DNA of 64,000 bases from Candidatus Omnitrophota bacterium (lineage in GTDB: Bacteria; Omnitrophota; Gorgyraeia; B26-G9). A program made the position numbers and the translations under genes. The DNA lies in the NCBI GenBank assembly GCA_043806135.1, contig JAZDHG010000031.1:1110-65109 (forward strand), written 5' to 3'. Below are positions 5,079 through 39,072 of the stretch, in pieces; position 1 is the stretch's first letter, and every line of letters starts with the position of its first letter. The notes below the pieces were generated by a model. The model was given only the letters and a program-made list of their open reading frames with translations, did not search any database and was not told where the DNA came from.

Positions 5079-5085
5079 GATAATA

Positions 5086-5802: not shown

Positions 5803-7733
5803 AAAGAATTGTCCTGTGTTTTTCCCTCATATTAACTCTGTTATGTTTCCCAAAAAACGTGATTTCTCAGGAAAATATTACCGGTTCGGATCAGGATCAA
5901 GCTCTTGAGCTAGCGGGGCGTTTAGCAGAACTTAAAAGTTCCTCAAGCTCTCAGATGGATGATACATCTGCAGGGGATATTTCAGGCTTTGTAAACCGGG
6001 CTTATGAGGCATGGGATAATAATAACTTTGATAAGGCGATAGAATACTTTAAAAAAGCACAGATTATCGAACCCGGCAATAAGAAGCTCAATGATCTTGT
6101 TTACGATGTAGAACGTGAAAAAATGAGATACGAGGAGCAGAAAGTTGCGATAGCAAAAGAGATCATAAAGCAAAAAAGAATGCTTGAAATTGATAAAGCA
6201 GGTCTTATCAGTGAGCCGGAAACTACCAGGAGCAGCGCAAAGGTTAAGACAGACCAACGTGTAACTCTAAGAATGAAAGCTGCCAGCAAGAGAGTTAGTG
6301 TTGACTTTAATAACGCAGAGTTAAATAAAATCCTGGAATATCTTTCGCAGGTAAGTGATATTAATATTATTATGGATGAGGATGCTCTAGCCAGGTCCCC
6401 CCAGGTATCTATTATTCTTAAAAATGTAACTTTAATCCAAGCTCTGGAGTCGATTTTGCGAACCAAGGGGTTGAGTTACCGGTTTGAGGATGATTTTATA
6501 TGGGTTAGTTCAAAAGAAAATATTGCCAATGAGGCGTTGACTACGCGTGTTTATCATCTTTCCCAAGGTCTGGCAAGCTTTACCGCATTTACAACTTTTG
6601 ATACAGTGACCATTGAAGGATTAAGGGGGGATAACGAAATCGTTATGAGTGAAAATAAGGCGGAAGACAAAAATGAATCTTCGGGTTCTGGAGTACGTAC
6701 TTATGAGGGAGTAAAGGTAGGAGGGCCTAGCGGTGTTGCCGGAAACATAACGGTTACGATTGAAAATGTGCTAAAACAGTTTGTAGGATGGCCTGAAGGC
6801 AGCAGAATATTCTTAGATAAGCGTACAAGCAAATTGATTGTACGCAATACTCCGAGTAATCTGGCAATTCTTGAAGACGTTATCGAAGCGCTTGATGTAA
6901 ATCCGCCCCAGGTAATGATTGAAGCCAGATTTGTGGAAATCGGAGCAGATGACCTTTATTCGCTGGGGGTTAAAATGTCGGCTGAGGTAAGTGCAGAAGG
7001 AGCGACATCACCTACAACTTTTCCGTTCAATAAAAATCAGAATACAAAATATTCATCCGCGTTTCCTTCTCCGACTACGGACCAATTTGCTTTCGGTACC
7101 CTTAATTTTTCTCAATTTCAGGCTGTGCTCTCGGCGATAGAGCAGAATACAAATACAAATACTTTATCTTCTCCTAAAATAACGACGATCAGCGGACAAG
7201 AGGCGGTTATTAAAATAGTCAAAGAATACCGTTATCCGACTAAATACGAGATCGAAGTGATCCGGGTTGAGAATGCAGCAGGGGAAACAGTTACGCAGTC
7301 TTTCCCGGTTCCGGTTGAATTTAAGACAAGAGATATCGGTATAATTTTACGAGTTACACCTAATGTGGGAGCTGATGATAAAACAATAAATCTAACCCTT
7401 GTCCCTGAGGTCAGCGAATTTGATATAGACAAGGATATGTACAATTACGGAACAGAAGAGAGACCTTTTTTGCAGCCTTTTTTTAATACGCGCAACGCAA
7501 CTGCCAGTATCATAGTTAATAATAAAGACACTGTGGTTATGGGCGGATTAATGCGTGAGGAAGTTACAAAGGGTGTGGACCGGGTGCCTATTTTGGGACA
7601 CCTTCCGATCCTGGGTAATCTTTTCAGCCGAAAAGTTGATAATAAACAAAAAAGAAATCTTTTGATTTTTGTCACGGCTTCTATTATCGCGCCGACCGGT
7701 GAGACAGTAGAGAAAAAAGCGGATGCTTTATGA
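5799..7733 (+). CDS. Secretin (PilQ/GspD family) with N-terminal TPR-like region
   Basis: There is a signal peptide. The C-terminal secretin domain carries the hallmark VVMGGLMREEVTKGVDRVPILGHLPILGNLFS, and an N-domain motif LDVNPPQVMIEARFVEI is also present. Confidence 0.9.
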   Translation: MKRIVLCFSLILTLLCFPKNVISQENITGSDQDQALELAGRLAELKSSSSSQMDDTSAGDISGFVNRAYEAWDNNNFDKAIEYFKKAQIIEPGNKKLNDLVYDVEREKMRYEEQKVAIAKEIIKQKRMLEIDKAGLISEPETTRSSAKVKTDQRVTLRMKAASKRVSVDFNNAELNKILEYLSQVSDINIIMDEDALARSPQVSIILKNVTLIQALESILRTKGLSYRFEDDFIWVSSKENIANEALTTRVYHLSQGLASFTAFTTFDTVTIEGLRGDNEIVMSENKAEDKNESSGSGVRTYEGVKVGGPSGVAGNITVTIENVLKQFVGWPEGSRIFLDKRTSKLIVRNTPSNLAILEDVIEALDVNPPQVMIEARFVEIGADDLYSLGVKMSAEVSAEGATSPTTFPFNKNQNTKYSSAFPSPTTDQFAFGTLNFSQFQAVLSAIEQNTNTNTLSSPKITTISGQEAVIKIVKEYRYPTKYEIEVIRVENAAGETVTQSFPVPVEFKTRDIGIILRVTPNVGADDKTINLTLVPEVSEFDIDKDMYNYGTEERPFLQPFFNTRNATASIIVNNKDTVVMGGLMREEVTKGVDRVPILGHLPILGNLFSRKVDNKQKRNLLIFVTASIIAPTGETVEKKADAL

Positions 7734-21604: not shown

Positions 21605-21671
21605 TCTTCTATGAAATCTAAAATATTCACGAATTAGCTTATAACATGTTGTATATAAATATGTTATGAGT

Positions 21672-21700
21672 TTGCATAATATTTAAAAGCATGGTATACT
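21672..21700 (+). promoter_or_regulatory. Sigma70-like promoter (TTGCAT-17-TATACT) upstream of the RSH-like gene
   Basis: Read directly: ttgcataatatttaaaagcatggtatact. Confidence 0.5.
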
Positions 21701-21767: not shown

Positions 21768-24650
21768 ATGAAAAAAAAATTTAAAACCGCACATTTTTTT
21801 AAAATTATTGCCCTGGTGATTTTTTGGGGGTGTATTTCAGTGCAGACTTCTCTAGCGCAGGGAAAAATCTTTGATAGCCAAAACCTGTCGCCAACTGTTA
21901 ATTTTGATGCACAGTCTTTTCTGGAGACATATAGACAAACTTATTCCAGTGTTGATATAGATTTGCAATACGCTTCAGTAAGTGCTGAGGCTGTACAAAA
22001 AACAAGGCAGGAATTTCTTGAAAAAGAAATAAGAACTAACCTTGAGAAAAATCCCAAATACTCGCAAAAAGACAAGAATCTCTTTGAGAAAGTCCTGGAA
22101 ATAATTAAAAAAGAATATGCGGACAAGAAGTTTCCTAGCCCCTCTAATGAATTTTATTTACATCATACTTTGGAAGCTGCTTATCACTTAAGTGAGTGGG
22201 GTGCGCCTGTTGAAGCAATTGCCGCCGCAGCAATGCATCGGCTTAATGAACATCAAGTAAGCGAATTGTTTAAGAATGAGCCGAGTAGAAAAGAATTTGC
22301 GGAGATTTCCACTCTTATGCATAAATTTCTTTTTATAACAGATTTTTATTATGCAACCATGCCTTTTGAAGGGGGAGCTCATGATATACAGAATTTTATG
22401 AATGCAATAATCCAGGTTTCTGCCAAAGACAGGGCTAAGGGTGAGGTTGAACCGGATTACCGCATAATGCTGCTTGTCTTTGCCGATAAACTTGCCTCGA
22501 TAAGTTTTGCCTCAGAAATGGACCGTAATGAACTGATAAAAGAAATTGAAGAGATGTATGCTCCGCTGGCGGAACGTTTGGGATATTATGAGATACGAAA
22601 ACAGCTGCTCAATGAATCTTTTCGGCTTTCCCGTAACGCTGAATATAATCATATCAGAAAAATATTTAAAGATTATTTTGGGAAAGAATATGAAGATATG
22701 CAGGATTATTTAAGTGAAATCGAGAGGATGATAAAAAACAAAATAATTGAAAACTACGGAGAGGTGGACAGCGCAACCTTAAAGGTCAGCGCTCGTGTAA
22801 AGGGATTGTATGAAATTGCCGAAAAATTGATAAAAGTCGGATCTATCGAAAATATGTCTGATATTTTAGGGATACGTATTGTCTGTGACTGTAAGCCGGA
22901 AATGCTTTATCAATATTCTGATTTAGTCAGAGAAAATCTGGGGAGATGGTTTGAAAAAGAGTATGATCAGCGTAAAAATGAAATGCCTACAAAACGTCCT
23001 CAGGGTGCGATATATATTGATCTAAAAAAAGAAGAGACGACAGACGCACTTACCTATGAAGTGCAGATTCTGACAAAACAGTTTCATGAAGGGCGAGAAC
23101 GTTCAAGAGCGCATTGGTCTTATAAATTGTCGAAAAAAACAGGCCAGAAATTTGACCAGACCGAGATGTATGCTCCTACAGGAGACCTTGAGAGTGATTT
23201 CAACCGAGTTTTTTACGAACTTTCAGATTGGGTTTTTGTTTTTGTTCAATCAAAAGGAAAAGGCGGTAGAATGTTTCTGCGCACAAAAAGACTTCCAAAA
23301 GGCGCTATAGTTGCAGACATTGCTGCTTTGCCTAACGTAGATTTGCTCAATACCGATTTTAGCGGAGCTAAACTCTATGACTGGCAGAAGAGCGTATTTT
23401 ATGAGCGCAGCTTACCCGGCGGTTCCTTACCATCAATAGATTATGTTTTACAGTCAGGAGATATTTTGGTTATAGAAAACAACGGACAAATTAAAAGCCC
23501 TCATTTACTGCGTCTTCGAGAAAAAGCAAAGACTTTAAGGGCGCAGATGATGATCAATCTAATGGAACTTGAAAAAGAACTTCCATCAAGCAGCCGTGAG
23601 AAATTCGTTTTTTCCGGTGAGACAAGCCTAAAACATAAACTAGAAGAAGCTGGTATTGCCTTTGAAAGGAACAGGGCTGTTCAGGCTTTCCTGGATTCAT
23701 TTGCGCATGCACAGGGGCTGCGTGACAGGGAAGAATTATATGTAGCTTTGACATACTGTTCTTGGAAAATGAGTATTAGTAAAATTATTGAAGAGGCTAA
23801 GCTTCAGGGGGAATCCTTACTTAAGAAAAAATTTCTTGAACAAGAAACGGATCTTGACGATTTTGTCCTCGGACAGATCGCACGAGGATTCGGAATTGAT
23901 TCCCGGGATATTTTTTTCCTGCATGTAGGTACCGGGCAGATTACAGACCGTGATCTAGAGTTGAAAATGTATAAAATCAATTTCAAGCCCGAGGGAATAT
24001 TAGATGTTCGTTTAAGTAAATTATTTCAATTTACAGTAACTATGCCGCGAGAAAAACTGTCTTCGCAGAAAATAAGAAAATTAGTGGATAATATTGAACA
24101 ATTACTTAATGATCAAGGGCTAAAGGACCCCCAAGAGAGAATAAAACTGCCGAAGCTTAAGCGGAAAAACGATGTCATTAAAATTGTGTTTTCAGCAAAA
24201 ACCAGAAATGAGATTAAAGCAGCCGAATTACAGAGAGATTTAATTAAATTGCTACGGGTCAAGGAAAGTGAAGTTGAGTTTGAAGAGTTTTATAACGGAA
24301 GAAAGCAAGCTAGCCAGTGGGCCATGGTACTGCAGTTTGCTCATTATGGACAGGAGACATCAGAACTTACGCAATATATTATGGATGAAATAAAAAGCTG
24401 GAGTCCGCTAAGTAGCCTGCTTAAATTTGATATTGAAGAAGAAATTACTGAAAATGGCATTAAGATAATTGAGGTGAGTGCAGTCATTGCTACTGATCTT
24501 GAGCACAGTTATATTGCCCAGAAGATAGCTGCACTAAAAAATAGTCATTCGATTAAGACAACAAGCGCGGATACCGTTTATTATCAGGCAGATGTTTTAA
24601 ATGCAATACATGCTACTGATCTTGTTTTGGCCATTGAGTCTTCCATTTAA
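21768..24650 (+). CDS. Long RelA/SpoT-homologue (RSH) protein with N-terminal signal/anchor segment and degenerate HD (hydrolase) motif
   Basis: The synthetase-domain motifs are SARVKGLYEI, DILGIRIV and YEVQILTKQFHE…RAHWSYK. A TGS-like segment runs FVFVQSKGKGGRMFLRTKRLPKGAIVADIA…GDILVIE, and a C-terminal regulatory region follows. The N-terminus is hydrophobic, MKKKFKTAHFFKIIALVIFWGCISVQTSLAQG. The HD position reads AAAAMHRLNEH, so no HD dyad is present. Confidence 0.7.
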   Translation: MKKKFKTAHFFKIIALVIFWGCISVQTSLAQGKIFDSQNLSPTVNFDAQSFLETYRQTYSSVDIDLQYASVSAEAVQKTRQEFLEKEIRTNLEKNPKYSQKDKNLFEKVLEIIKKEYADKKFPSPSNEFYLHHTLEAAYHLSEWGAPVEAIAAAAMHRLNEHQVSELFKNEPSRKEFAEISTLMHKFLFITDFYYATMPFEGGAHDIQNFMNAIIQVSAKDRAKGEVEPDYRIMLLVFADKLASISFASEMDRNELIKEIEEMYAPLAERLGYYEIRKQLLNESFRLSRNAEYNHIRKIFKDYFGKEYEDMQDYLSEIERMIKNKIIENYGEVDSATLKVSARVKGLYEIAEKLIKVGSIENMSDILGIRIVCDCKPEMLYQYSDLVRENLGRWFEKEYDQRKNEMPTKRPQGAIYIDLKKEETTDALTYEVQILTKQFHEGRERSRAHWSYKLSKKTGQKFDQTEMYAPTGDLESDFNRVFYELSDWVFVFVQSKGKGGRMFLRTKRLPKGAIVADIAALPNVDLLNTDFSGAKLYDWQKSVFYERSLPGGSLPSIDYVLQSGDILVIENNGQIKSPHLLRLREKAKTLRAQMMINLMELEKELPSSSREKFVFSGETSLKHKLEEAGIAFERNRAVQAFLDSFAHAQGLRDREELYVALTYCSWKMSISKIIEEAKLQGESLLKKKFLEQETDLDDFVLGQIARGFGIDSRDIFFLHVGTGQITDRDLELKMYKINFKPEGILDVRLSKLFQFTVTMPREKLSSQKIRKLVDNIEQLLNDQGLKDPQERIKLPKLKRKNDVIKIVFSAKTRNEIKAAELQRDLIKLLRVKESEVEFEEFYNGRKQASQWAMVLQFAHYGQETSELTQYIMDEIKSWSPLSSLLKFDIEEEITENGIKIIEVSAVIATDLEHSYIAQKIAALKNSHSIKTTSADTVYYQADVLNAIHATDLVLAIESSI

Positions 24651-24704
24651 TCCTGTTTTACTAATTTTTCAATAAAGTTCACTTTTAAAATTCTATATGT
24701 TATA

Positions 24705-25106
24705 ATGTTACATATGGAAAATAAAAATAAACAGTGGCCTAAGGAAAAGGCGGAAAAACACCTTAAAATCAGTGCGGCATTGATCATTGTTGGCGGGATT
24801 GCCGGACTGATCATGGCTATTGATGATTTTGTTACTTTAGGTACACGTGTAAGTACATTTATATTGCCCTACGCCTATAATATTACGGCTATTGCGGTAT
24901 CCTTATTTCAGATATCTCTTGGGATTGCCTGGCTTGAAAAAAAATTATGGAGTAGATACGCTGTTTTTGTTGTTATTGCCCTAAGGTTTATGTTCTCTTT
25001 TTATGATAATGCCGAGGCCTGGCAGGCAATAATTTTGTTAATTTACATATTATATGTGATTCCGTTCTCGAAAATAGGCGGATTATTTAAGAAAAAAGCG
25101 TATTGA
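24705..25106 (+). CDS. Hypothetical small integral membrane protein
   Basis: The 133-aa product has 3-4 predicted transmembrane helices. No recognised motif is present, and the start codon is uncertain. Confidence 0.5.
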   Translation: MLHMENKNKQWPKEKAEKHLKISAALIIVGGIAGLIMAIDDFVTLGTRVSTFILPYAYNITAIAVSLFQISLGIAWLEKKLWSRYAVFVVIALRFMFSFYDNAEAWQAIILLIYILYVIPFSKIGGLFKKKAY

Positions 25107-28539: not shown

Positions 28540-29166
28540 ATGTCGGATAAACTGGAAAAGCTTACTAAACAGATATATGAAGAGGGCGTAGGAAAGGCTA
28601 AAGAAGAGGCGGAAAATATTATTAAAGCGGCTGAGGCGGAAAAGAGAAAGATCCTGCGCGCAGCAAGAGTTGAGGCACAGGATATAGCCAATGTCGCCAA
28701 GAAAGATGCGGAGGAGCTTAAAAACAGGGTAGCTTCTGAGGTGCGTATGGCGAGCTCGCAGTCACTGGCCTTGCTAAGGCAGAAAATAACCGAACTTATA
28801 TGTGTAAAAGTATCCGAGTCTTCAGTTAATGGCTTATTCGATGATCCGGATTTTTTGAAAAATATGCTTGAAACTGTTATGAAGGAGTGGATGGCTAGCG
28901 GATGTCAAAGAGGCCAGGCCTTTTATATAACACTTCCCAAGAAGATGCAGGGAGAGATCCAGGATTATTTCCTGGAGAAGGGTAAAAAAGAGCTGGATAA
29001 TAAACTGGAGATCGAATTTGACGAAAAGATCAAAAGCGGCTTTGTGATCAGTCCTAAAGACGGCAGCTATAGGATCGGTTTTACAGAAGAAGATTTTAAG
29101 GCTCTTATAGAATATTTTTTGCGTCCGCATATAAAGAAATTTCTTTTTAAGGATGAAACTAAATAA
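28540..29166 (+). CDS. atpE: V/A-type ATPase subunit E
   Basis: The 208-aa product has a coiled-coil N-terminus and a globular C-terminus. It is the first gene of the E-x-A-B-D-I-K cluster. Confidence 0.75.
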   Translation: MSDKLEKLTKQIYEEGVGKAKEEAENIIKAAEAEKRKILRAARVEAQDIANVAKKDAEELKNRVASEVRMASSQSLALLRQKITELICVKVSESSVNGLFDDPDFLKNMLETVMKEWMASGCQRGQAFYITLPKKMQGEIQDYFLEKGKKELDNKLEIEFDEKIKSGFVISPKDGSYRIGFTEEDFKALIEYFLRPHIKKFLFKDETK

Positions 29167-29990
29167 TGAGTAGACAGTATTATTATCTTATTGCATCACT
29201 TGGGCAGTTGCGCCTTGATGATTATAAAGAGCCTTACCGCGTGGATGAGTTTGTTTCGGAACTTCATAAAAACCTTACACCTGTTCATAGCGGGTATGTG
29301 CGGGATATACTGCGTATCTATGATAATGCGCACATCGTCGACTGCATGCTGGAAAACCAGAAACCATGGTTATTATGCAAAGGCAACTGGACATTTGATG
29401 AGCTTAAGAAAAAAATGCCTTTTAATGAATACGATACGGATGCTTATATAGCTTGTTTTATGAAAGAGTTTAATAGGCTTAAACAAAATACCCAGAAAAT
29501 TTCAAGAGCTGATATCGAAAAAGTGATTTGGCATATTTTTTACTCTAAAATGGTAAATCATGATAACGCCTTTATCCGCCGTTACTTCTCTTTTGACCTG
29601 GAACTAAAGAATGTTCTGGCAAGTTTTAATAAGCGGAAATTTAGTCTTTCAGAGGATATCCTGATGCGTGTAAGCGATAGTGGAATAATGGACAAATTAA
29701 GTTCTTCAACGGCTAATGACTTTGGATTGTCCAAAGAGCTGGAGTATATCCCGGGATTACTAGATGCTTTTTTAAAGAAAGACAGCGTTAATATCGAAAA
29801 ATTTACAGACCAGCTGCGTTGGGACATGATCGACCAGATAAACTCGCTTGTGTATTTTCAGATCGATGTTTTGCTGGGATATCTTATTAAACTGATGCTT
29901 GTAGAGCGTTGGATTTCTCTTGATGAGGTTACAGGCAAAGAGAGTTTTCAAAAAATCATGGAGATTAAAACAGAAGAAGTATATCAGTAG
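29166..29990 (+). CDS. Hypothetical protein conserved in V-ATPase operons (position of the Chlamydia-type uncharacterised subunit; possible C/d analogue)
   Basis: The call rests on context only, between atpE and atpA. The 274-aa product is start-stop overlapped with atpE. Confidence 0.4.
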   Translation: MSRQYYYLIASLGQLRLDDYKEPYRVDEFVSELHKNLTPVHSGYVRDILRIYDNAHIVDCMLENQKPWLLCKGNWTFDELKKKMPFNEYDTDAYIACFMKEFNRLKQNTQKISRADIEKVIWHIFYSKMVNHDNAFIRRYFSFDLELKNVLASFNKRKFSLSEDILMRVSDSGIMDKLSSSTANDFGLSKELEYIPGLLDAFLKKDSVNIEKFTDQLRWDMIDQINSLVYFQIDVLLGYLIKLMLVERWISLDEVTGKESFQKIMEIKTEEVYQ

Positions 29991-30008
29991 AATATTTGTG
30001 GAGGAACC

Positions 30009-31766
30009 ATGGCGACAAAAGGAAGGGTTATTGCTGTTGTCTCTAATCTAGTAACAATAGAAGTGGACGGACCAGTCAGTCAAAATGAGATCTGCTATAT
30101 AGATTTAGACGGTATAAAACTTAAGGCAGAGGTAATTAAAATTAACGGAAACCGTGCCTCTGCACAGGTCTTTGAAAGTACGCGGGGACTTCGTTTCGGC
30201 TGTAGTGCAGAATTTACAGAGCATATGCTTGAGGTTGAACTCGGGCCCGGCCTTCTTTCGAAAAAATATGACGGCCTGCAAAATGATCTCGAAGCAATGA
30301 ACGGGGTATTTTTAAAAAGAGGAGAATTAACAGCGAGATTTTCTTATGAACAAAAATGGGATTTTGTTCCGATAGCCAAAGTGAACGATAGGGTTAAAGC
30401 AGGAGATTTCCTCGGCGAGGTCAATGAAAACTGGGTTAAACATAAAATTATGGTGCCTTTTGCTCTGGAAGGTCTATGGCAGATAGAATCAATTGCCAAA
30501 AAAGGCTCATATACGGTAAAAGATACCATTGCCGTGTTAAAGGACAAAGACGGAAAGAAACAGAATGTCAGCATGATGCAGCGCTGGCCGGTAAAAGTAC
30601 CGGTTCGTGCCTATGCGGATAAGCCGATAGCTTATAAATTGCTTCAGACAGGGGTAAGGCTTATTGACACGCTAAACCCTATAGTAGAAGGAGGTACAGG
30701 ATTTATTCCCGGACCTTTTGGTTGCGGCAAAACAGTTTTGCAGCATATTATTGCCGCTAATGCCCAGGTTGATATGGTAATTATCTGCGCTTGCGGAGAA
30801 AGAGCGAATGAGGTAGTGGAGATATTTAAGGAATATCCGGAGCTTGAAGATCCGTTTACCGGACGCAAACTTATTGAACGCACGATTATTATTTGCAATA
30901 CTTCCAATATGCCCGTAGCTGCACGAGAGGCCTCTGTTTATACAGCAATGACAATCGCCGAATATTACCGTCAGATGGGTTTAAAGATATTACTGCTTGC
31001 CGATTCTACATCCCGTTGGGCTCAGGCACTCAGAGAGATGTCCAACCGAATGGAAGAATTGCCGGGCCCGGACGCTTTCCCCATGGATTTGACGGCGATT
31101 GTGGCTAATTTTTATTCAAGAGCAGGCCTGGTTGAGCTCTCTAACGGACAGACAGGGTCGGTAACCTTTATCGGAACGGTTTCTCCTGCGGGAGGGAATT
31201 TTAAAGAGCCGGTGACCGAATCCACCAAGAAAGTAGCCCGTTGTTTTTATGCTCTTTCCCAGAAGCGCGCCGATAGCAAAAGATATCCTTCGATAGATAC
31301 AATAGAAAGTTATTCAAAATACCTTGAATATAAAGAAGTGCAGGAATACATGGCGGAAAATCTGGAACCGCATTGGATAGAAAAGATTTTGTACATACGC
31401 GATGTCTTGCTCAGGGGAAAAGAGTCATATGACCGGATAAATATTTTGGGCGATGACAGCGTGCCTGTTGAATATCACGAGCGTTACTGGAAATCTGAAC
31501 TGATTGACTTTGGATTTCTGCAGCAGGATGCTTTTGACGAGGTTGATAAGGCAACGCCTATGGATAGGCAAAAATACATGATGGATATTATATACAATAT
31601 ATGCAAAGCAGACTTCAAATTTGAAAATTTTGACGGAGTCGCTGATTACTTTAAAAAAATCATAAATTTAATAAAACAGATGAACTATTCTAAATTTCAG
31701 GAAGAAGAATTTAAGAAGTTTGAAGACGAACTGCAAAGTGTCTTGATGGAACGAAAGGTCAATTGA
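30009..31766 (+). CDS. atpA: V/A-type ATPase catalytic subunit A
   Basis: The Walker A motif is GPFGCGKTV. The product is 585 aa and has the non-homologous region typical of A subunits. Confidence 0.95.
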   Translation: MATKGRVIAVVSNLVTIEVDGPVSQNEICYIDLDGIKLKAEVIKINGNRASAQVFESTRGLRFGCSAEFTEHMLEVELGPGLLSKKYDGLQNDLEAMNGVFLKRGELTARFSYEQKWDFVPIAKVNDRVKAGDFLGEVNENWVKHKIMVPFALEGLWQIESIAKKGSYTVKDTIAVLKDKDGKKQNVSMMQRWPVKVPVRAYADKPIAYKLLQTGVRLIDTLNPIVEGGTGFIPGPFGCGKTVLQHIIAANAQVDMVIICACGERANEVVEIFKEYPELEDPFTGRKLIERTIIICNTSNMPVAAREASVYTAMTIAEYYRQMGLKILLLADSTSRWAQALREMSNRMEELPGPDAFPMDLTAIVANFYSRAGLVELSNGQTGSVTFIGTVSPAGGNFKEPVTESTKKVARCFYALSQKRADSKRYPSIDTIESYSKYLEYKEVQEYMAENLEPHWIEKILYIRDVLLRGKESYDRINILGDDSVPVEYHERYWKSELIDFGFLQQDAFDEVDKATPMDRQKYMMDIIYNICKADFKFENFDGVADYFKKIINLIKQMNYSKFQEEEFKKFEDELQSVLMERKVN

Positions 31767-31819
31767 TGACTGAACTTATGGAGCGTAAGAGGACATAAGT
31801 TCACAGTCAGAGAATGACC

Positions 31820-31991
31820 CAGCCCTCTGTGCAGATAGAGGAAAGATATTTAAAAAAGAAAGATAATAGCAATAACTAGCCCTCACAGGGTTGATCAGGG
31901 AATAGCTTAGAGGGCTGGATTTAATTCGCGCATATCATTTAACTTCACAATGTTCGCTAAATAATGCGCTCATTAAAGAAAGGAAAATATC
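31820..31991 (+). ncRNA. Conserved 5'-leader element, copy 3 (in the 225-nt spacer between atpA and atpB)
   Basis: It begins with CCCTCTGTGCAGATAGAGG. The core CAGGGAATAGCTTAGAGGGCTGGATTTAATTCGCG follows, then a hairpin GCGCATATCATTTA…TAAATAATGCGC, then CTCATTAAAGAAAGG and the ATG. Confidence 0.45.
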
Positions 31992-33368
31992 ATGAACCAG
32001 AAAACTCCGGCGTTTACAACTGTATATACAAAGATAGAGCAGATTACTAAAGCAACATGTTCTTTAAGGGCAGGCGGCGCATTTAATGAGGAAATGGCAC
32101 TTATTGACGGGCGGCCGGCTCAGGTTGTGAAAATACAGGGAGATTTGATCACATTACAGGTTTTCTCTGGAACCCAGGGGATCGGTACGGATGTTGATGT
32201 CGTGTTCTTGGGAGAACCGCCAACCCTTAAAGTAGGTCCGGATTTATCGGGAAGATTTTTTAGCGCATACGGTACGCCGATTGACGGAGGCCCTGAGTTG
32301 GAGGGAAAGAAGGTTCCGATCGGAGGTCCCAGTGTAAATCCGGTGCGCCGCAAACAGCCTTCAGAGCTTATTAGTACGGGGATTGCCGGTATTGATCTGA
32401 ACAATACCCTAGTGGGAGGACAGAAAATTCCCTTTTTTGCCAATCCGGATCAGCCCTTTAATCAGGTTATGGCTAATGTTGCTTTGCGTGCCGGAGCGGA
32501 CAGGATTATTTTAGGCGGTATGGGTTTATCCAATGACGATTATCTTTATTACCGGCGTATATTTGAAGACGCAGGTGTTTTGGAAAAGATAACCTGTTTT
32601 ATAAACACAACAGATGATCCGCCAGTCGAGCGTTTGCTGATCCCGGATATGGTCTTAACTGCGGCAGAATATTTTGCAGTTGAGAAAAAAGAAAAAGTTT
32701 TGGTCTTACTTACAGATATGACGCTTTTTTGTGATGCTTTGAGTATTGTCTCTAACCGTATGGATCAAATCCCGAGTAAAGACAGTATGCCTGGTTCTTT
32801 ATACAGTGATTTGGCGAAGATATATGAAAAAGCGGTTCAGTTTGAAGAAGGCTCGATCACTATTGTTGCGGTAACAACGCTGAGCGGAGAGGATATTACA
32901 CATGCAATCCCGGATAATACCGGATATATTACCGAAGGACAGCTTTTTTTGCGGCGCAATACGGATATTTCTAAAGTTATCGTTGATCCTTTCCGTAGTT
33001 TGTCTCGTTTGAAACAGCTGGTGATCGGCAAACGCACAAGAGAAGATCACCCCCAGGTTATGAATGCAGGTATCCGTTTGTATTCTGATGCCGCATACGC
33101 GAAAACAAAACAGGAGAACGGGTTTGACCTTACTGATTATGATGAACGGGCATTGAAATTCGCCTTTGATTACAGCAATGAACTCTTGGCCATTGATATT
33201 AATATTGATATAGATAAGATGATCAATACCGCCTGGAGGTTGCTGGCAAAATATTTTAGCAAAGATGAAATTGGCATTAAACAGGAGATGGTGGACAAAT
33301 ACTGGCCGAAAGAAGACGGAGAACAGGCTAGTAGCGAGAATAAATCGACAGACGGGAGAAAAAACTGA
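31992..33368 (+). CDS. atpB: V/A-type ATPase subunit B
   Basis: The 458-aa product has the F1/V1 alpha/beta fold without a canonical P-loop, which is the regulatory B subunit. Confidence 0.9.
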   Translation: MNQKTPAFTTVYTKIEQITKATCSLRAGGAFNEEMALIDGRPAQVVKIQGDLITLQVFSGTQGIGTDVDVVFLGEPPTLKVGPDLSGRFFSAYGTPIDGGPELEGKKVPIGGPSVNPVRRKQPSELISTGIAGIDLNNTLVGGQKIPFFANPDQPFNQVMANVALRAGADRIILGGMGLSNDDYLYYRRIFEDAGVLEKITCFINTTDDPPVERLLIPDMVLTAAEYFAVEKKEKVLVLLTDMTLFCDALSIVSNRMDQIPSKDSMPGSLYSDLAKIYEKAVQFEEGSITIVAVTTLSGEDITHAIPDNTGYITEGQLFLRRNTDISKVIVDPFRSLSRLKQLVIGKRTREDHPQVMNAGIRLYSDAAYAKTKQENGFDLTDYDERALKFAFDYSNELLAIDINIDIDKMINTAWRLLAKYFSKDEIGIKQEMVDKYWPKEDGEQASSENKSTDGRKN

Positions 33369-33511
33369 AGGACGAGAGACGATCGTTTGAGTTGTTCACT
33401 ATGATGAAAGACGAAAAGACGTAAAGCGAATTAAATTTGCGAGTTGCGCGTCAGCGAGTTTGCGTGTTGGAAAATAGAAAAACTGAGAAAATTTTTATAT
33501 TGATTTTTTGA

Positions 33512-33558
33512 AGTAACTTTTAGTAACCAATAGTAACTGTTTGTAACTGCTGGTAACC
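33512..33558 (+). promoter_or_regulatory. Five GTAAC pentamers at exact 10-bp period upstream of atpD
   Basis: Read directly: agtaacttttagtaaccaatagtaactgtttgtaactgctggtaacc. The 17-mer TAGTAACTGTTTGTAAC is shared with 58275. Confidence 0.5.
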
Positions 33559-33583
33559 GAAGAATAATAACTAGGGATGAAAC

Positions 33584-34177
33584 GTGTCGCAGATGCAATA
33601 TAACAAGACTTTTTTAATGCAGATCAATAAAGATCTGGAGATCAGACAAAACGCTTTGCCGGTCCTGCAAAGCAAGGAAGCTGCTTTGCGTGCGGAAACT
33701 CGTCGTATGCGCATTCAGATCAAAGAAATTGCTAAAAAAGTAGAGGCAAAAATACAGTCTCTAAAATCTGTGCAGCGGCTATGGAGCGAATTTCCGGATA
33801 TTATCCATGTTAAAAAAGTCAACTTTAAGACAAAAAAAATCGCCAGTATAAAAGTGGGTATTGTCGAAAGCATCGAATATGATATTGGTTCATTTGAATT
33901 GTTTGCGCATCCGGCATGGTTTATGAATGGACTGCATAGCATAAAGGAAGTATTAGGTCTAAAAATAGAAGTGTTCAATTTAGAGAAGGTTTTGGAAAGT
34001 GTTGAGTATGCACGCAGGAAGACAACACAAAAGGTAAATCTATATGAAAAAGTACAGATACCTTTTTTTGAAGAGGCAATGCGTAAGATAAAGAGGTTTT
34101 TGGAAGATGAGGAAAATCTGTCTAAATCTTCCCAAAAGGTAATAAAGAGAAGAATGGAAGAGGCTAGTATCGTATGA
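33584..34177 (+). CDS. atpD: V/A-type ATPase subunit D
   Basis: The 197-aa product is a coiled-coil central-stalk protein in the conserved position after B. The gene starts at a GTG, with an alternative ATG 9 nt downstream. Confidence 0.75.
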   Translation: MSQMQYNKTFLMQINKDLEIRQNALPVLQSKEAALRAETRRMRIQIKEIAKKVEAKIQSLKSVQRLWSEFPDIIHVKKVNFKTKKIASIKVGIVESIEYDIGSFELFAHPAWFMNGLHSIKEVLGLKIEVFNLEKVLESVEYARRKTTQKVNLYEKVQIPFFEEAMRKIKRFLEDEENLSKSSQKVIKRRMEEASIV

Positions 34178-35955
34178 TAACCCTGATGGAAAAAATCACA
34201 ATCTTGATATTTCACAAGGCTAAAGAGGATTTTTTGCATTCCTTGCAGGAACTCGGCGTTATACATATTTCTCAGGATATAAAAAAAGATTCGCATGAGG
34301 GATTGAAGGAAATAAGAAACAGAATAGACAGAGCGGATGCTTTCCTGAAGGCAGCAAAAAAATCATCATCTGCAGTCTCTTCTTCTGTCCGGGGTGAAGG
34401 ACAATCAGCCTTATCTGTTATTGGGGAGCATGAGAATATTCAGCAGATTATAAACGTTTCTCAGGATGAATTGGATAAGGTGGACAGGCAGATACGCAAT
34501 CTTGCTCCCTGGGGGGAATTCAGCCGGGAATCTATGGAAAAGGTCAGGCTTTCAGGATTGCGCTTACGTTTTTTTATAACTCCAGTAAAGAATTTCGACT
34601 TTTGCGGTGTTGATGAGAATATTTGTGCGTTCGAGATCTCCCGGGATAAAACATATGTGTATTTTGTCGTGTTTGAAAAGGAAGATGTAGTAAAACTTAA
34701 TTGTGATGAGTTTTTTTATCCGGATTTAGATCTGAAGACGTTGCAGAATAAAGCACAGGCAATAACAGAAACTATTAGGGAAAGCGAGAAAAAATTATCC
34801 GCTTTGTTCTCTCAGGGTTCAGCTATCGAAACTTACCTCAATGAGCAGAAAAGCGGCTTGAATTATGCAACGGTAAACAGTAACCTGACGAGTGCGGCTG
34901 AAGATACTATTTATATAATAAACGGATGGCTGCCTCAAGATTTAAAGTTAAAAGTACAGGCTTGGCTGGATGAAAAGGATATTTACTGCTATTTTTCCAA
35001 GCCAAATGTAGGAGAGGATGTCCCGATTTTACTAAAAAATAATCCCTTTGCAAAGTTGTTTGAACCGATTACAAAGATGTTCTCTTTGCCTAATTATACC
35101 GAATTTGACCTGACGGCTTTTTTTGCCCCGTTTTTTACATTATTTTTCGGTTTTTGCCTTGGAGATGCAGGGTATGGATTGATCATCCTCTTATTATGCG
35201 CAATATTCTGGAAAAAAGTCAGCCAGAATAAAAGACCCTTGTTGATATTAGGAGCGGTCTTTGGTGTTTCCACTTTTCTTTTCGGACTTATTTCAGGAAA
35301 TCTGTTCGGGGTGGAACTTGTAAAAATTGCGTTTATAAAGAATTTAGTATTGTTTAACCAGAACCAGCTCTTTTATCTTTCTCTAAAGATAGGGGTAGTT
35401 CAGATATTTTTCGGACTGTTTCTAAAAGCATTTAGTAAATTAAGACAATTCGGATTTACGGCAAGTCTTTCAAGCTGGGGATGGCTAATAATGCTAACCG
35501 GAGTTTTGCCGCTTGTTCTGGCTTTTCTTTCAGATGCGGCCGCACCTTTATGGGCCCTATGGACATCCTTTACAGGACTTACGCTTATAATGCTGTTTAA
35601 TGACTTAAAGGCTAATATTTTTATCAGGCTGGGCAAAGGATTATGGGAGCTTTATGGAGGGCTTAGCGGATTTTTGGGAGATGTTTTAAGTTATGTGCGG
35701 CTTTTTGCCCTGGGTTTGTCAGGTGCAGTACTAGGTCTTGTTGTCAATGAAATAGGCATGCAGTTTCGGGCTATACCATTCGTAGGATATTTTATAACGT
35801 TTGTTTTTTTGATCGTGGGCCATTCGGCTAATTTACTTCTAAGCGGTTTGTCCAGTTTTGTACATCCGCTGCGTCTTACATTTGTTGAGTTTTATAAAAA
35901 TGTCGGTTTTGAAGGCGGAGGAAAGGCATATAATCCATTTAAAAAAATAAATTGA
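34174..35955 (+). CDS. atpI: V/A-type ATPase subunit I (a-subunit, membrane)
   Basis: The 593-aa product has a cytoplasmic N-terminal half and a C-terminal half of about 7 transmembrane helices with a conserved Arg-containing helix. Confidence 0.85.
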   Translation: MITLMEKITILIFHKAKEDFLHSLQELGVIHISQDIKKDSHEGLKEIRNRIDRADAFLKAAKKSSSAVSSSVRGEGQSALSVIGEHENIQQIINVSQDELDKVDRQIRNLAPWGEFSRESMEKVRLSGLRLRFFITPVKNFDFCGVDENICAFEISRDKTYVYFVVFEKEDVVKLNCDEFFYPDLDLKTLQNKAQAITETIRESEKKLSALFSQGSAIETYLNEQKSGLNYATVNSNLTSAAEDTIYIINGWLPQDLKLKVQAWLDEKDIYCYFSKPNVGEDVPILLKNNPFAKLFEPITKMFSLPNYTEFDLTAFFAPFFTLFFGFCLGDAGYGLIILLLCAIFWKKVSQNKRPLLILGAVFGVSTFLFGLISGNLFGVELVKIAFIKNLVLFNQNQLFYLSLKIGVVQIFFGLFLKAFSKLRQFGFTASLSSWGWLIMLTGVLPLVLAFLSDAAAPLWALWTSFTGLTLIMLFNDLKANIFIRLGKGLWELYGGLSGFLGDVLSYVRLFALGLSGAVLGLVVNEIGMQFRAIPFVGYFITFVFLIVGHSANLLLSGLSSFVHPLRLTFVEFYKNVGFEGGGKAYNPFKKIN

Positions 35956-35998
35956 TATTTTATTACTGTTACAGTGAGTGCAAAGAAGCAAGTTTTAA

Positions 35999-36499
<501 letters not shown>

Positions 36500-37879: not shown

Positions 37880-38217
37880 TATGCATTGTCCAAAGTTTAT
37901 TGATTTTACAAGGGAATGCCAGTATAAAATAGGATTTCTGCCTTTAGACACTCGCCACTTTTGCTCTACCCGCAAATACAAAAAAGTGCCCGTTTTATAT
38001 AGCCATTCATAATGTCGGATATTTTTGCAAATATCTTAAACTCTGTCCAGCCTTTGAGCATTTTAAAACGGAAAATTTCGATAAATTTGTGCAAATAGCA
38101 AACGAATACTGCCTTTCTGAAAAGAACAATGTGCGTTGTTCAAGATTTAAGCTAAGAACTGCAGGGAAAAATCCGCCTGCGAAATTAATGCCGGATGGAA
38201 GTGTTTTGGAAAAATAA
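37880..38217 (+). pseudogene. Cys-rich small ORF(s) with three CP(K/F/A)F-type repeats, split by a frameshift at an A6 run (about 37965); intact length would be ~112 aa
   Basis: Frame 1 reads MHCPKFIDFTRECQY…KKVPVLYSHS*. Removing one A from the A6 run continues it as …KKCPFYIAIHNVGYFCKYLKLCPAFEHF…GSVLEK*. Confidence 0.3.
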
Positions 38218-38244
38218 ACAGTTAGTTAAATATAAAGGAGGGAT

Positions 38245-38358
38245 ATGATGAGTTGGATATTGTTCGGTCAGATCGTCTTGTTGATGGTAATATATTCTTT
38301 TATTAAACAACTGGTTAAGTGTATGCATGATACAAAATGTAAAATCTGTAAAAAATAA
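38245..38358 (+). CDS. Small membrane peptide with C-terminal Cys-rich tail (37 aa)
   Basis: An RBS GGAGGG sits 5 nt before the ATG. The product is MMSWILFGQIVLLMVIYSFIKQLVKCMHDTKCKICKK. Confidence 0.3.
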   Translation: MMSWILFGQIVLLMVIYSFIKQLVKCMHDTKCKICKK

Positions 38359-38389
38359 TTTAAAAGGGAAATCGAACGTCTTTCGCATC

Positions 38390-38600
38390 TTCCGCTAGCC
38401 CTTGTAAAACAGCTCAGAACTAGAACAAGTTCAGTCCAGAGCTGCATAGTACCGATCTATGATTTGGTTCTATGCAGGGCCGTGCTCAGATGTCTCACTC
38501 CCTAAGGGGAAACCCTTATGGCGTGAGCCACGTTGTGGCAACGCCACTCACGTGGTTTTCCCCTTCCCTATCTAAAGACGATAAGCTTTCTGAGTGCTTG
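38390..38600. ncRNA. GC-rich highly structured segment of unknown class (nested inverted repeats), adjacent to tRNA-Glu
   Basis: Three hairpins are visible. The first is CTGCATAG…CTATGCAG. The second is GGGGAAACCC…CGTGAGCCACG. The third is GTGGCAACGCCAC, nested within CACGTGGTTTTCCCC. No long ORF is present, and GC content is much higher than in flanking DNA. Confidence 0.3.
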
Positions 38601-38738
38601 GGATTAATTTGATAACGAATTTATATTCACACTATTCCATAAATTCTATCTCATTATTAATATTCCTCTTTTGGTTCGAACCCCAGGAAGAGCTATCAGA
38701 AAATAAAAAGGCCACTCTATCGAGTGGCTTTTTATAGT

Positions 38739-38816
38739 TGGTACCCCCAAGGGGATTCGAACCCCTGTTTTATGGCTGAGAACCACATGTCCTGGACCGG
38801 GCTAGACGATGAGGGC
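38739..38816 (-). tRNA. tRNA-Glu (anticodon CUC), with encoded CCA
   Basis: The reverse complement is GCCCTCATCGTCTAGCCCGGTCCAGGACATGTGGTTCTCAGCCATAAAACAGGGGTTCGAATCCCCTTGGGGGTACCA. This is collinear with E. coli tRNA-Glu (TCGTCTAG…CAGGAC…GGGGTTCGAATCCCC). The anticodon loop TTCTCAG gives CTC. Confidence 0.85.
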
Positions 38817-38958
38817 AAAAGTTTATGCTTTGGAAATTATATCATAATTTATTTTAAAGTCAATGCTTCTATGTCATTCTATGTAACATTTTGAGCAATG
38901 CTGAATATGTTACTGAATAGGTTACATTGGTTATAAATACTTCCTCCTAAGGCGAATA

Positions 38959-39072
38959 TTAAAAATTCCGCCACTCCCGCGCTGTGATCAATCCCTTGTC
39001 CGGCGTTATTCCAAAGATCGCAAATACAATTGCCAGCAGCAGGTCCATAATTCCGCTGACAATATTGACCAT
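38959..39072 (-). CDS. Possible 37-aa small membrane peptide
   Basis: An AGGA sits 6 nt before the ATG. The product is MVNIVSGIMDLLLAIVFAIFGITPDKGLITAREWRNF. No other support was found. Confidence 0.15.
   Translation of the reverse strand: MVNIVSGIMDLLLAIVFAIFGITPDKGLITAREWRNF

Follow-up and report, generated by a model that had tools for sequence, protein, structure and literature searches.

A divergent long RelA/SpoT homologue with a conserved predicted Sec signal peptide and a degenerate hydrolase site in Candidatus Omnitrophota

The locus and the overall architecture of the protein

A complete open reading frame at 21768..24650 (+) of the window, by which we mean the whole 64-kb stretch of DNA analysed here, encodes a divergent long RelA/SpoT homologue (RSH) of 960 aa, with the coordinates and length given in the original prediction; as codon -3 is an in-frame stop, upstream extension is impossible. 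The protein is laid out as a predicted Sec-type signal peptide, an extension of ~90 aa, a pseudo-HD domain, a synthetase (SYNTH) domain, a TGS-like domain, a helical region and tandem ACT-like domains. Its recognition as an atypical long RSH was borne out by Pfam HD_4 (residues 121-272, 34.3 bits against a cutoff of 27.2) and RelA_SpoT (PF04607, residues 343-456, 38.4 bits against 27), by PDB sequence matches, the best of which is RelA (5iqr), and by full-length Foldseek matches, headed by full-length SpoT (7qpr), ribosome-bound RelA (5iqr) and B. subtilis Rel (6yxa). The fold aligns with full-length SpoT and RelA over ~850 columns, and target-normalised TM-scores of 0.6-0.69 were obtained with structures of Rel N-terminal domains. 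Among the NCBIfam models, TIGR00691 (spoT_relA) scored 90.1 bits, below its curated cutoff of 499.2, and the gammaproteobacterial/betaproteobacterial RelA equivalog NF008124 and the SpoT model NF008303 scored 49.6 and 34 bits, below cutoffs of 728 and 947. Identity to canonical bifunctional Rel/SpoT is only 20-25%. Residue states were read from an alignment of 22 sequences including 15 canonical Rel, and from a position table of 179 proteins.

The orthologs sit in the same housekeeping slot, in the order RNase HII, RSH, small membrane protein, 5-FTHF ligase and RNase Y. The downstream neighbour at 24705..25106 (+), a 133-aa multi-pass membrane protein to which Pfam assigns no family, holds the same position in the orthologous loci L081 and L082, where it is 78% and 53% identical. 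The RSH gene is the fastest-evolving member of this conserved neighbourhood (38% identity, against 53-90%); as evolution of such a degree is common among exported or interaction proteins, we count it in favour of export. The window also encodes a secretin and carries T2SS/T4P genes, which points to a diderm envelope. No antitoxin or immunity gene arrangement was found at the locus, where synteny is with housekeeping genes and the RSH gene has its own promoter. A phmmer search with 15 canonical Rel sequences against the six-frame ORFs of the 64-kb window retrieved neither a second RSH nor a small alarmone hydrolase, and none was found in the flanks of the loci L001, L002 and L081. That another enzyme must degrade (p)ppGpp, as originally argued, follows only if the enzyme acts in the cytoplasm of its producer. 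Such an enzyme would be a synthetase-only, RelA-like stringent factor whose N-terminus serves either as an inner-membrane tether or, via export, as a gate on activity, with a separate hydrolase elsewhere in the genome. ATP and GTP, the substrates, are cytoplasmic, and the gene belongs to the core set and keeps a fixed position among genes of translation and RNA metabolism, while the empty search for a hydrolase in the window and the ortholog flanks speaks, if weakly, against this arrangement, which on all the evidence given here and below we consider a serious but unlikely alternative.

Start codon, signal peptide and N-terminal extension

A promoter-like element recovered by consensus scan, consisting of TTTGCA, an 18-nt spacer and a TG-extended TATACT, lies at 21671..21700 (+), ~70 nt 5' of the ATG, and its TTGCA and TGGTATACTTT blocks are invariant among the window, L001 and L081. 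The ATG at 21768 is itself invariant in four loci, the first 30 codons contain neither indels nor stops, and start codon, promoter and signal peptide are preserved among orthologs as distant as 38% identity. We looked for a mis-called start, in which case the product would be an ordinary, if divergent, cytoplasmic Rel without a signal peptide and the original prediction would fall. The Shine-Dalgarno match 5' of the ATG is weak, and a database fragment (P0083) has been called from codon 25. However, the invariant ATG with a conserved 5' UTR and promoter upstream, the persistence of the signal properties down to ~31% identity and the position of the next in-frame ATG only at codon 156, inside the HD domain, leave this explanation with hardly any probability.

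Residues 1-30 (21768..21857, +) form a predicted Sec-type signal peptide with the expected three-part structure, namely an n-region MKKKFKTAHFFK (+5), an h-region IIALVIFWGCISV (13 aa) and a c-region QTSLA with a small-x-small site, and cleavage is predicted before Q31, between QTSLA and QG. It is similar to the N-termini of the secretin and lipoproteins encoded in the window, it is the only hydrophobic segment of the protein, and it is kept in the homologs P0001, P0003-6, P0031 and P0032, from 70% down to ~31% identity. The call was made by heuristics with controls: none of 72 canonical Rel N-termini passed our crude test, as against 30 of 76 members of the divergent radiation described below, which argues that the feature is not a chance property of RSH N-termini. 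The ~30-aa signal-peptide-like segment noted originally thus held up as a conserved predicted Sec signal peptide. As for the wording "membrane-anchored or exported", the second term fared better than the first, since an export signal that is cleaved fits better than an anchor with the short h-region (10-13 aa), the conserved S-[F/L]-A site and the strong positive charge of the n-region. A Tat signal was rejected for lack of a twin arginine, and so was a lipoprotein reading of FWGC, whose lipobox is non-canonical and whose Cys is not conserved. A terminator-like hairpin at 21811-21829, within the coding region of the signal peptide, was taken as a chance match.

The same features bear on a stringent factor held in the cytoplasm or at the inner membrane. 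The h-region does not have the length needed for a stable transmembrane helix and is followed by a conserved signal peptidase I-type site, and the distribution of charge, +3 to +6 in the n-region and ~0 in the stretch that follows the h-region, should by the positive-inside rule leave the bulk of the protein outside. In three close loci a GTG occurs at codon 25, with a G-rich stretch before it, and this internal start could give rise to a cytoplasmic isoform in the closest relatives, in line with a cytoplasmic role; the L082 ortholog, however, is devoid of it. Were the protein a cytoplasmic factor, (p)ppGpp would be made only while it awaits translocation, when Sec is compromised, or by such a signal-less isoform.

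The N-terminal extension (residues 31-120; 21858..22127, +) was delimited by alignments, a structure model and motif statistics. It carries a conserved N/T-L-S-P motif at residues 39-42, and an L[SAR]P motif is found in 30 of 76 members of the radiation versus 2 of 72 canonical Rel. Model confidence is low as far as helix 73-94, and the last helix of the extension (100-117) is the counterpart of the first helix of canonical HD domains.

Catalytic and regulatory domains

The HD domain (residues 121-272; 22128..22583, +) was defined by Pfam HD_4, alignment to canonical Rel and the 179-protein table. H133, H157 and D240 are kept, and three of the four metal ligands are retained, while the metal-binding Asp of the dyad has given way to R158, E161-H162 stands in place of the ED diad, and LHNM has become LASI (A243-S244) with loss of the HN of DxLHN. 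The His-Arg state of the dyad (M-H157-R158-L) occurs in all close homologs, with Lys instead in the 31% homolog, and no alignment that we made contained an intact dyad displaced by an insertion. The degenerate hydrolase motif of the original prediction is therefore real and extends beyond the dyad, and the H...HD...ED...D..N pattern of bifunctional Rel/SpoT is not found in the 960-aa protein. Judged by these motif states, the domain is a putative pseudo-enzyme with a dead hydrolase.

The SYNTH domain (residues 336-456; 22773..23135, +), a nucleotide pyrophosphokinase domain, was assigned by Pfam RelA_SpoT, invariant columns, the position table and PDB and fold matches. R343, K345, K353, D365, G368, R370, E431, Q433, H449, Y452 and K453 are invariant with respect to canonical Rel in the 22-sequence alignment; R343, K345, D365, R370, E431 and Q433 we take to be the equivalents of R241, K243, D264, R269, E323 and Q325 of RelSeq. 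Of the synthetase motifs named at the outset, DILGIRIV, EVQILT and AHWSYK are present, while the supposed GRVK is really ARVKGLYEI, its first residue being Ala. The core catalytic residues are intact in the alignment with 15 canonical Rel, in agreement with a synthetase-only enzyme; since every core ATP/Mg2+ residue is kept, the domain is probably still capable of pyrophosphate transfer from ATP to a purine nucleotide, yielding (p)ppGpp and/or (p)ppApp. Changes are seen in the acceptor (G-)loop (TKRPQGAIYIDLK), where GYQSxH has become GAIYID in the protein's own subclade, and the Arg of EVQIRT is Leu here and is replaced across the whole radiation, so that activity or specificity may differ or be lost.

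If both catalytic domains were inactive, the protein could be an exported pseudo-enzyme that serves as a nucleotide- or ligand-binding protein, scaffold or sensor in the periplasm or at the surface. The destroyed HD dyad, the GAIYID loop and the replaced Arg all point this way, as do the variability of R370 among more distant members of the radiation (position table), the fast sequence evolution and a periplasm without an obvious ATP supply. Nevertheless, the core SYNTH residues are invariant across the family as well as in canonical enzymes, a pattern that speaks for selection on catalysis, sequence conservation within the protein is highest in its pseudo-HD and SYNTH domains, and a Tyr or Phe is still there two residues downstream in the acceptor loop; a wholly inactive protein thus appears improbable to us. 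The altered loop could also mean a different acceptor, either adenine nucleotides only, as for (p)ppApp synthetases like Tas1/Apk1, or the tRNA 3' end, as for CapRel/FaRel2, in which case the protein would be a delivered toxin. Related modules do occur in the giant multi-enzyme, probably exported proteins of the putatively predatory Omnitrophota (bioRxiv 10.1101/2023.11.21.568195), and CapRel was recovered as a weak fold match (rank 34). But the similarity to Rel, SpoT and RelA is far stronger than to toxSAS, a canonical G-[Y/F]-x-[S/A]-x-H loop persists in the subclades nearer the base of the radiation, and the locus is not arranged like one with an antitoxin or immunity gene, and we regard such a toxin as very improbable.

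The TGS-like segment and C-terminal regulatory region claimed originally found support in alignment and fold, while Pfam TGS and Pfam ACT gave no match in the 960-aa protein. A search for homologs with the C-terminal 390 aa alone returned no match, not even the 65%-identical orthologs, which looks like an index quirk, and the C-terminal assignment was therefore made by structure. The TGS-like beta-grasp domain with insertions (residues 485-572; 23220..23483, +) shares invariant F492, P510, D517, A519 and G533 with canonical TGS, is crossed by the full-length fold alignment to SpoT and RelA, and is devoid of the 'IH' histidine, which contacts the tRNA CCA end in canonical enzymes. It is followed by an AH-like helical region (residues 573-740; 23484..23987, +), supported by modelled secondary structure and weak RelA_AH matches in orthologs, in which the motifs TLRAQ and GxGQI are conserved. 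A Cys-rich zinc-finger (RIS) domain was not found, the mature protein containing only 3 Cys and no CC motif. Structure models and Foldseek identified two successive ACT-like domains of beta-alpha-beta-beta-alpha-beta topology (residues 741-926; 23988..24545, +), whose best matches are tandem-ACT proteins, namely 2nyi (E 7e-6), GcvR (1u8s), aspartokinase regulatory domains and SerB2. The remainder (residues 927-960 and stop codon; 24546..24650, +) comprises a helix and a conserved tail ending in AIESSI-COOH; a [STAN][AS][IAV] tail occurs in 18 of 93 radiation members versus none of 78 canonical Rel, with 0.006 expected from composition. The loss of the TGS histidine and zinc finger, with a tandem ACT pair instead, suggests that a small ligand, and not the starved ribosome, controls the enzyme. 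For a stringent factor of the producer's cytoplasm these findings cut both ways, as the full regulatory architecture is retained while the parts for ribosome and tRNA sensing are lost.

The Omnitrophota radiation and comparison with known systems

The Omnitrophota, a PVC-allied lineage, comprise ultra-small bacteria with a putatively predatory or host-dependent way of life. An exhaustive profile search placed the gene within a radiation of Candidatus Omnitrophota in which hydrolase-dead RSH modules form ~60 clusters; many of the modules lie inside multi-enzyme proteins of 2,000-8,000 aa. This membership was missed by the original prediction, and the modules are presently annotated 'HD domain-containing protein' or 'hypothetical protein'. 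The genomic contexts of the homologs P0038 and P0049 were uninformative. No relA/spoT KOs were found in the supplements of the Omnitrophota genomics paper, the main texts of three Omnitrophota papers nowhere mention ppGpp, SpoT or the stringent response, and the 2011 RSH census recorded the PVC superphylum as without RSHs. The group of signal-peptide-bearing, hydrolase-dead long RSH proteins in Omnitrophota is previously undescribed.

The reading that we favour, as an evenly balanced call made from sequence features, is that of a Sec-exported, synthetase-only long-RSH enzyme resembling alarmone synthetases and acting outside the cytoplasm of its producer. The pyrophosphokinase would be made with a cleavable signal peptide and leave the cytoplasm of a diderm cell for the periplasm, possibly beyond. 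Its pseudo-hydrolase would not break alarmones down, its SYNTH domain would make (p)ppGpp and/or (p)ppApp in the periplasm, in the surroundings of the cell or, once delivered, within a host or prey cell, rather than in the producer's stringent response, and the tandem ACT pair would sense a small ligand in place of the ribosome-sensing parts. We know of no available periplasmic ATP and GTP, so that an exported kinase would be left without an obvious substrate, the same puzzle as for the known exported alarmone synthetases (EAS). The large regulatory C-terminal half and the housekeeping neighbours look more like a physiological regulator than an effector. RelV of V. cholerae is reportedly a contributor to cellular ppGpp. 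As RelV carries a signal peptide according to the EAS survey (PMC12691689), we count it for synthesis in the producer's cytoplasm.

More broadly, and with considerable reserve, we speculate that Omnitrophota turned long RelA/SpoT into exported effectors, ranging from the 960-aa core-genome protein to modules of secreted giants, which would make alarmones outside the producer or inside host or prey cells to stop growth and would share a pair of sorting signals not recognised before. The proposed pair comprises a signal peptide followed by the L-S/A/R-P motif, and a C-terminal tail ending in S/A-A/I/V; the partners in the giant proteins are phosphoglycerate kinase, phosphoglycerate mutase and HAD domains. 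If true, a stringent-response enzyme would, instead of sensing stress inside the cell, serve as a weapon or as a signal between cells. Alarmone synthesis was long held strictly cytoplasmic; here a complete long RSH, regulatory domains included, can sit behind a predicted secretion signal as a conserved core gene of an Omnitrophota clade. The locus provides an independent, phylogenetically distant test case for the role of exported alarmone synthetases, a candidate factor for interaction with hosts in a phylum that has not been cultured and may live by predation or parasitism, and an entry point to the ~60 clusters of unannotated modules, some in giant proteins of almost entirely unknown function, and it bears on whether PVC-allied bacteria possess a conventional stringent response.

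With bifunctional Rel/SpoT (RelSeq 1vj7, T. thermophilus Rel 6s2t, A. baumannii SpoT 7qpr), which give the best sequence and fold matches, the protein shares the order of HD, SYNTH, TGS-like, helical and ACT-type C-terminal parts and the synthetase catalytic residues, whereas it is without the HD Asp, the ED diad, the Asn, the zinc finger and the TGS histidine and adds a second ACT and a 120-aa N-terminus including the Sec signal peptide. Canonical long RSHs are cytoplasmic and ribosome-associated. E. coli-type RelA likewise combines, in a long RSH, an HD domain that is inactive with a SYNTH domain that looks active, but the 960-aa protein keeps three of four metal ligands, has lost ribosome/tRNA sensing and has a signal peptide; since its NF008124 score shows that it is no RelA ortholog, the hydrolase would have been lost independently. 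The plant and algal RSH1-3 and CRSH are also long RSHs with an N-terminal targeting peptide to another compartment, in their case a chloroplast transit peptide into a stroma that contains ATP, GTP and ribosomes, unlike the bacterial periplasm, and the targeting signal is of a different type. For targeting of the plant RSHs, TargetP has been cited (Atkinson et al. 2011, PMC3153485). Tas1/Apk1 (T6SS) and the toxSAS enzymes (FaRel, CapRel) are hydrolase-free RSH synthetases outside the producer's own physiology, and related modules occur in giant proteins; the 960-aa protein, however, has a long-RSH architecture with weak CapRel fold likeness, no PAAR, Rhs, LXG or MuF delivery domain and no immunity or antitoxin gene.

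Close parallels are SaEAS (Streptomyces) and VpEAS/RelV (Vibrio), which Ahmad et al. (mBio 2025, PMC12691689) describe as Sec-exported SAS enzymes and active alarmone synthetases. An exported synthetase, of which a long-RSH form was called unusual in the original prediction, is thus already known in SAS form, whereas the long-RSH version is absent from that survey, from which multidomain RSHs were deliberately excluded; Omnitrophota is not among the phyla named in the parts of it considered here. In both, a Sec signal peptide at the N-terminus precedes SYNTH, an immunity gene next door is lacking, and the source of a substrate outside the cytoplasm poses the same question, but a known EAS is either a small SAS protein with a single domain or a SYNTH domain joined to a T3/T6/T7SS or MuF delivery domain, while the 960-aa protein is a whole long RSH encoded by a fixed-position core gene. 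An export signal on a SYNTH-containing protein, the defining feature of EAS, was found here by the heuristic test with controls, conservation and the start codon, and by this analogy the 960-aa protein would be the long-RSH counterpart of EAS.

Identity, leader and start codon of the RSH

The divergent long RSH of the window is encoded by a complete ORF at 21768..24650 on the plus strand (960 aa), exactly as in the original prediction. The ORF cannot be extended in the 5' direction, as an in-frame stop lies three codons before the ATG, and no further in-frame ATG occurs before codon 156, which falls within the HD domain. Pfam found RelA_SpoT (residues 343-456, 38.4 bits) and HD_4 (residues 121-272, 34.3 bits) in the protein, both just over the gathering score, and no other domain. 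The general spoT_relA model of NCBIfam gave 90 bits (cutoff 499), and the RelA and SpoT equivalogs gave 50 (cutoff 728) and 34 (cutoff 947), respectively. The top sequence matches among solved structures were E. coli RelA and several Rel N-terminal domains (E 1e-10 to 1e-6). Taken together, these scores identify a true but very divergent RSH, composed of a predicted signal peptide (residues 1-30), an extension (31-120), pseudo-HD (121-272), SYNTH (336-456) and TGS-like (485-572) domains, a helical region (573-740), an ACT-ACT pair (741-926), and a terminal helix with tail (927-960).

A signal-peptide-like N-terminus had been predicted, and residues 1-30 indeed form a three-part leader, with an n-region (MKKKFKTAHFFK) of net charge +5, an uncharged hydrophobic h-region of 13 residues, and a polar c-region terminating in S-L-A ahead of Q31. 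No second segment of comparable hydrophobicity occurs anywhere in the protein. The leader recurs in the full-length close relatives, the P0002 gene call being truncated, and also in P0031 (38% identical), P0032, and P0006 (31% identical); n-regions carry +2 to +6, cores are 10-13 residues long, and the site is S-[F/L]-A or A-F-A. A crude rule-based signal-peptide test was passed by 0 of 72 N-termini of canonical Rel (ordinary cytoplasmic long RSH enzymes) versus 30 of 76 from the divergent group, and by 15 of the 18 full-length members scoring >200 bits. Rules and conservation thus argue well for a Sec signal peptide, and the near-zero net charge after the core, read with the positive-inside rule, would place the protein body outside. 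The secretin and two lipoproteins of the window, which are known to be exported, have leaders much like that of the RSH. The secretin and the T2SS/T4P components encoded in the window indicate a diderm cell, in which the periplasm would be the default destination of an exported RSH. These components lie in a type IV pilus/type II secretion-like cluster (13-7733, plus strand) with a T2SSE ATPase, a T2SSF platform protein, and a PilM-PilN fusion; the secretin and two unannotated proteins are also found there. Similar systems adjoin Omnitrophota giant genes (West-Roberts et al.).

The assigned start codon is sound. Four loci share the ATG without change, no indels interrupt the alignment of the first 30 codons, and a promoter with a TG-extended -10 (TTGCA...TGGTATACT; 21671-21700, plus strand) is conserved 5' of the ATG, as are further 5'-UTR blocks. 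One caveat is that codon 25 is a GTG with a G-rich stretch before it; the three closest loci share this GTG, and the ortholog in the related genome L082 lacks it. A mis-called start is effectively excluded by the conserved ATG and promoter. The main rival reading, which we consider rather unlikely, is that the RSH acts in the producer's cytoplasm, whether as a RelA-like synthetase that is tethered to the membrane or gated by export, or as an isoform translated from an internal start; it would need a hydrolase elsewhere in the genome. As a separate observation, the first 45 residues of the 116-aa fragment P0083 match the window protein from codon 25, the fragment being called at its GTG. The match implies that the same or a near-identical strain is represented in public data only by this fragment, the full-length protein not being on record.

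Catalytic and regulatory domains

Residue states were read from an alignment of the window protein, its relatives, and 15 canonical Rel (22 sequences), in which we take H53, H77, D144, D78, E81-D82, and N148 of the reference enzyme RelSeq to correspond to the sites named here. The Mn2+ ligands H53, H77, and D144 are kept as H133, H157, and D240. The Asp of the HD dyad (D78) is replaced by Arg in the window protein and by Lys in the distant relative P0006; the dyad position thus reads H157-R158, bearing out the degenerate hydrolase dyad originally predicted. The E81-D82 diad has become E161-H162 (or N/R), and LHNM, which includes the catalytic N148, has become LASI. HD-dyad mutants are the standard hydrolase-dead Rel variants, and with this dyad altered the HD domain is very probably inactive.

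The synthetase motifs of the original prediction were found as ARVKGLYEI, DILGIRIV, EVQILT, and AHWSYK. R343, K345, Y348, K353, D365, R370, E431, Q433, H449, Y452, and K453 are invariant in all 22 aligned sequences, consistent with a competent synthetase; that the protein is an exported pseudo-enzyme seems unlikely. The acceptor ("G") loop reads QGAIYIDLK in place of GYQSxH, and Leu or Met stands where EVQIRT has its Arg. By the most economical alignment, the stacking Tyr (Y416; Phe in P0032) is retained after a two-residue insertion. It is improbable that the enzyme uses another acceptor substrate, as a (p)ppApp- or tRNA-directed toxin would. The linker from SYNTH to the TGS-like region (residues 457-484; 23136-23219) carries the motif [K/E]-T-G-Q-x-F-D (signature TGQKFD) and is the best-conserved stretch of the protein, at 82-89% in close relatives; the motif is found throughout the divergent group and is absent in canonical Rel.

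A TGS-like segment and a C-terminal regulatory region had also been predicted, and alignment and fold support both. The region after SYNTH aligns with the TGS domain, with insertions and with F492, P510, D517, A519, and G533 invariant, and it lacks the "IH" histidine, which in RelA touches the tRNA CCA end. The protein has no Cys-rich zinc-finger domain, with three cysteines in its mature form. Its AlphaFold2 model (mean pLDDT 68; catalytic half mostly 70-90) best matched full-length SpoT (7qpr, E 4e-16, ~850 aligned columns), with ribosome-bound RelA and B. subtilis Rel also among the best matches. A separate model of residues 573-960 (pLDDT 73) shows the helical region followed by two beta-alpha-beta-beta-alpha-beta units, and its best matches are all tandem-ACT proteins, namely 2nyi (E 7e-6), GcvR, aspartokinase regulatory domains, and SerB2.

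A radiation of RSH modules in Omnitrophota

A word-indexed search with the window protein returned five close relatives only. When 1.84 billion cluster representatives were searched exhaustively with a profile, 63 clusters reached E <= 1e-30, all of which outscore canonical Rel, and proteins with the canonical states (HHDEDDHN / RKDGR / EQRH) start only at ~130 bits in the ranking. Every profile match was mapped onto the window protein numbering for site-by-site comparison. Across the radiation, most members retain both His and the distal Asp at the HD site, and the HD Asp is replaced by R, K, N, S, H, T, and others; in SYNTH the R-K-D-G and E-Q-x-H residues are retained and L, M, I, or F takes the place of the EVQIRT Arg. 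All members with a source name are Candidatus Omnitrophota, and their records bear the names "hypothetical protein" or "HD domain-containing protein". A subclade of ~700 aa (P0006, P0033, P0036-38, P0041) stops after the helical region and has no ACT pair.

Many of the RSH modules are internal to very large proteins (P0035, 5,805 aa; P0058, 4,619 aa; P0070, 7,967 aa; P0098, 4,971 aa; P0116, 7,848 aa), whose database names follow other embedded enzyme domains, namely phosphoglycerate kinase, HAD hydrolase, or phosphoglycerate mutase. Modules with a dead HD and a live SYNTH by residue state occur in 2,000-8,000-aa proteins including P0035, P0058, P0070/P0190, P0098, P0116, P0111, P0089, and P0104. 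One such module, in a relative's locus (L002:2-3079), is followed at the sequence level by a P-loop (GxxxxGKT) motif.

Two terminal motifs recur within the radiation. An L-S/A/R-P motif, 5-15 residues past the predicted cleavage site, occurs soon after the signal peptide in 30/76 radiation members versus 2/72 canonical Rel. The window copy is N-L-S-P (residues 39-42; 21882-21893), with equivalents in P0001-5, P0031, P0032, P0040, P0044-46, P0048, P0049, and P0051 and an "ALRP" form in P0006, P0033, P0037, P0038, and P0041. The C-terminal tail [STAN][AS][IAV] (...ESSI in the window protein; 24630-24647) was found in 18/93 radiation members versus 0/78 canonical Rel, at an expectation of 0.006 from composition. 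Carriers include P0003, P0004, P0031, P0036-38, P0041, P0045, P0046, P0048, P0050, P0056, P0098, and P0111, and no other window protein ends so. Both motifs also occur where the RSH module sits hundreds of residues from either end. A sorting signal or degron is a possible role for them, and the tail may alternatively be a PDZ or tail-specific-protease ligand.

The RSH gene is part of a co-directional series of housekeeping genes, with rho, L31, prfA, prmC, murA-like, S16, trmD, L19, and rnhB before it and, after it, genes for a 133-aa membrane protein, then 5-FTHF cyclo-ligase, RNase Y, YmdB, and the V-type ATPase. Since the loci of P0001 (70% identical) and P0031 (38% identical) keep exactly this gene order, the RSH gene is a core gene passed on by vertical descent and belongs neither to a toxin-antitoxin system nor to a mobile element. 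The RSH is the fastest-evolving gene of its neighbourhood, with 70% identity to the related genome L081 versus 78-94% for neighbours, and 38% to L082 versus 53-90%. Pseudo-HD, SYNTH, the TGS-like region, and the 457-484 linker are its most conserved parts; conservation is lowest in the second ACT domain and at both termini. The multi-pass 133-aa membrane protein (24705-25106, plus strand) directly follows the RSH gene in all three syntenic loci, is 78% identical in L081 and 53% in L082, matches no Pfam family, and has its own promoter-like site at 24678-24706. Further downstream lie a complete V/A-type ATPase operon (28540-36499, plus strand) and then an adenosine-specific kinase family protein (PF04008; 37330-37812, plus strand) adjoining a PP-loop ATPase. 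Long ORFs of the window are nearly all on the plus strand, and GC skew falls to ~0 in the 38-40 kb bin (region 38000-39400) around a minus-strand tRNA (38742-38816), the sole Rfam match in the window.

Relation to exported alarmone synthetases

The Atkinson et al. 2011 survey (PMC3153485) recorded not a single RSH from the PVC superphylum, and long RSHs with a signal peptide or membrane anchor are mentioned neither there nor in the 2020 update. Three Omnitrophota genomics papers, two of them on giant proteins, say nothing of RelA/SpoT, ppGpp, or the stringent response, and the two on giant proteins name no RSH domains. Within the searchable literature, both a long-RSH-type protein with a signal peptide and the Omnitrophota radiation are undescribed. 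Ahmad et al. 2025 (PMC12691689) demonstrated both export and alarmone synthesis for small SAS-type enzymes that carry Sec signal peptides, namely SaEAS and VpEAS/RelV, which are toxic if retained in the cytoplasm. SaEAS has a low Km for ATP, a property that would suit an enzyme acting outside the cytoplasm.

We give about an even chance to the reading that the window protein is a long-RSH derivative that would leave the producer's cytoplasm by Sec export, hydrolase-dead and synthetase-competent, with a ligand-binding-type ACT pair standing in for lost ribosome-sensing elements, and that it would work outside that cytoplasm, as the EAS (exported alarmone synthetase) enzymes do, but with a long-RSH build. 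Homology, architecture, motif states, conservation, synteny, and the radiation itself are demonstrated, and export, activity, substrate, and site of action are inferred. The lack of an obvious periplasmic ATP source counts against this exported-enzyme reading; it counts equally against the experimentally validated EAS enzymes. The original observation is confirmed, and the earlier view of an unusual exported or anchored synthetase-only RSH was largely right, although it needs updating now that exported alarmone synthetases are a known category. Within that category the window protein differs from EAS enzymes in architecture, being a long RSH, and in phylogenetic origin; it would thus add an architectural and phylogenetic variant to the exported alarmone synthetases, as part of a sizeable unannotated family.
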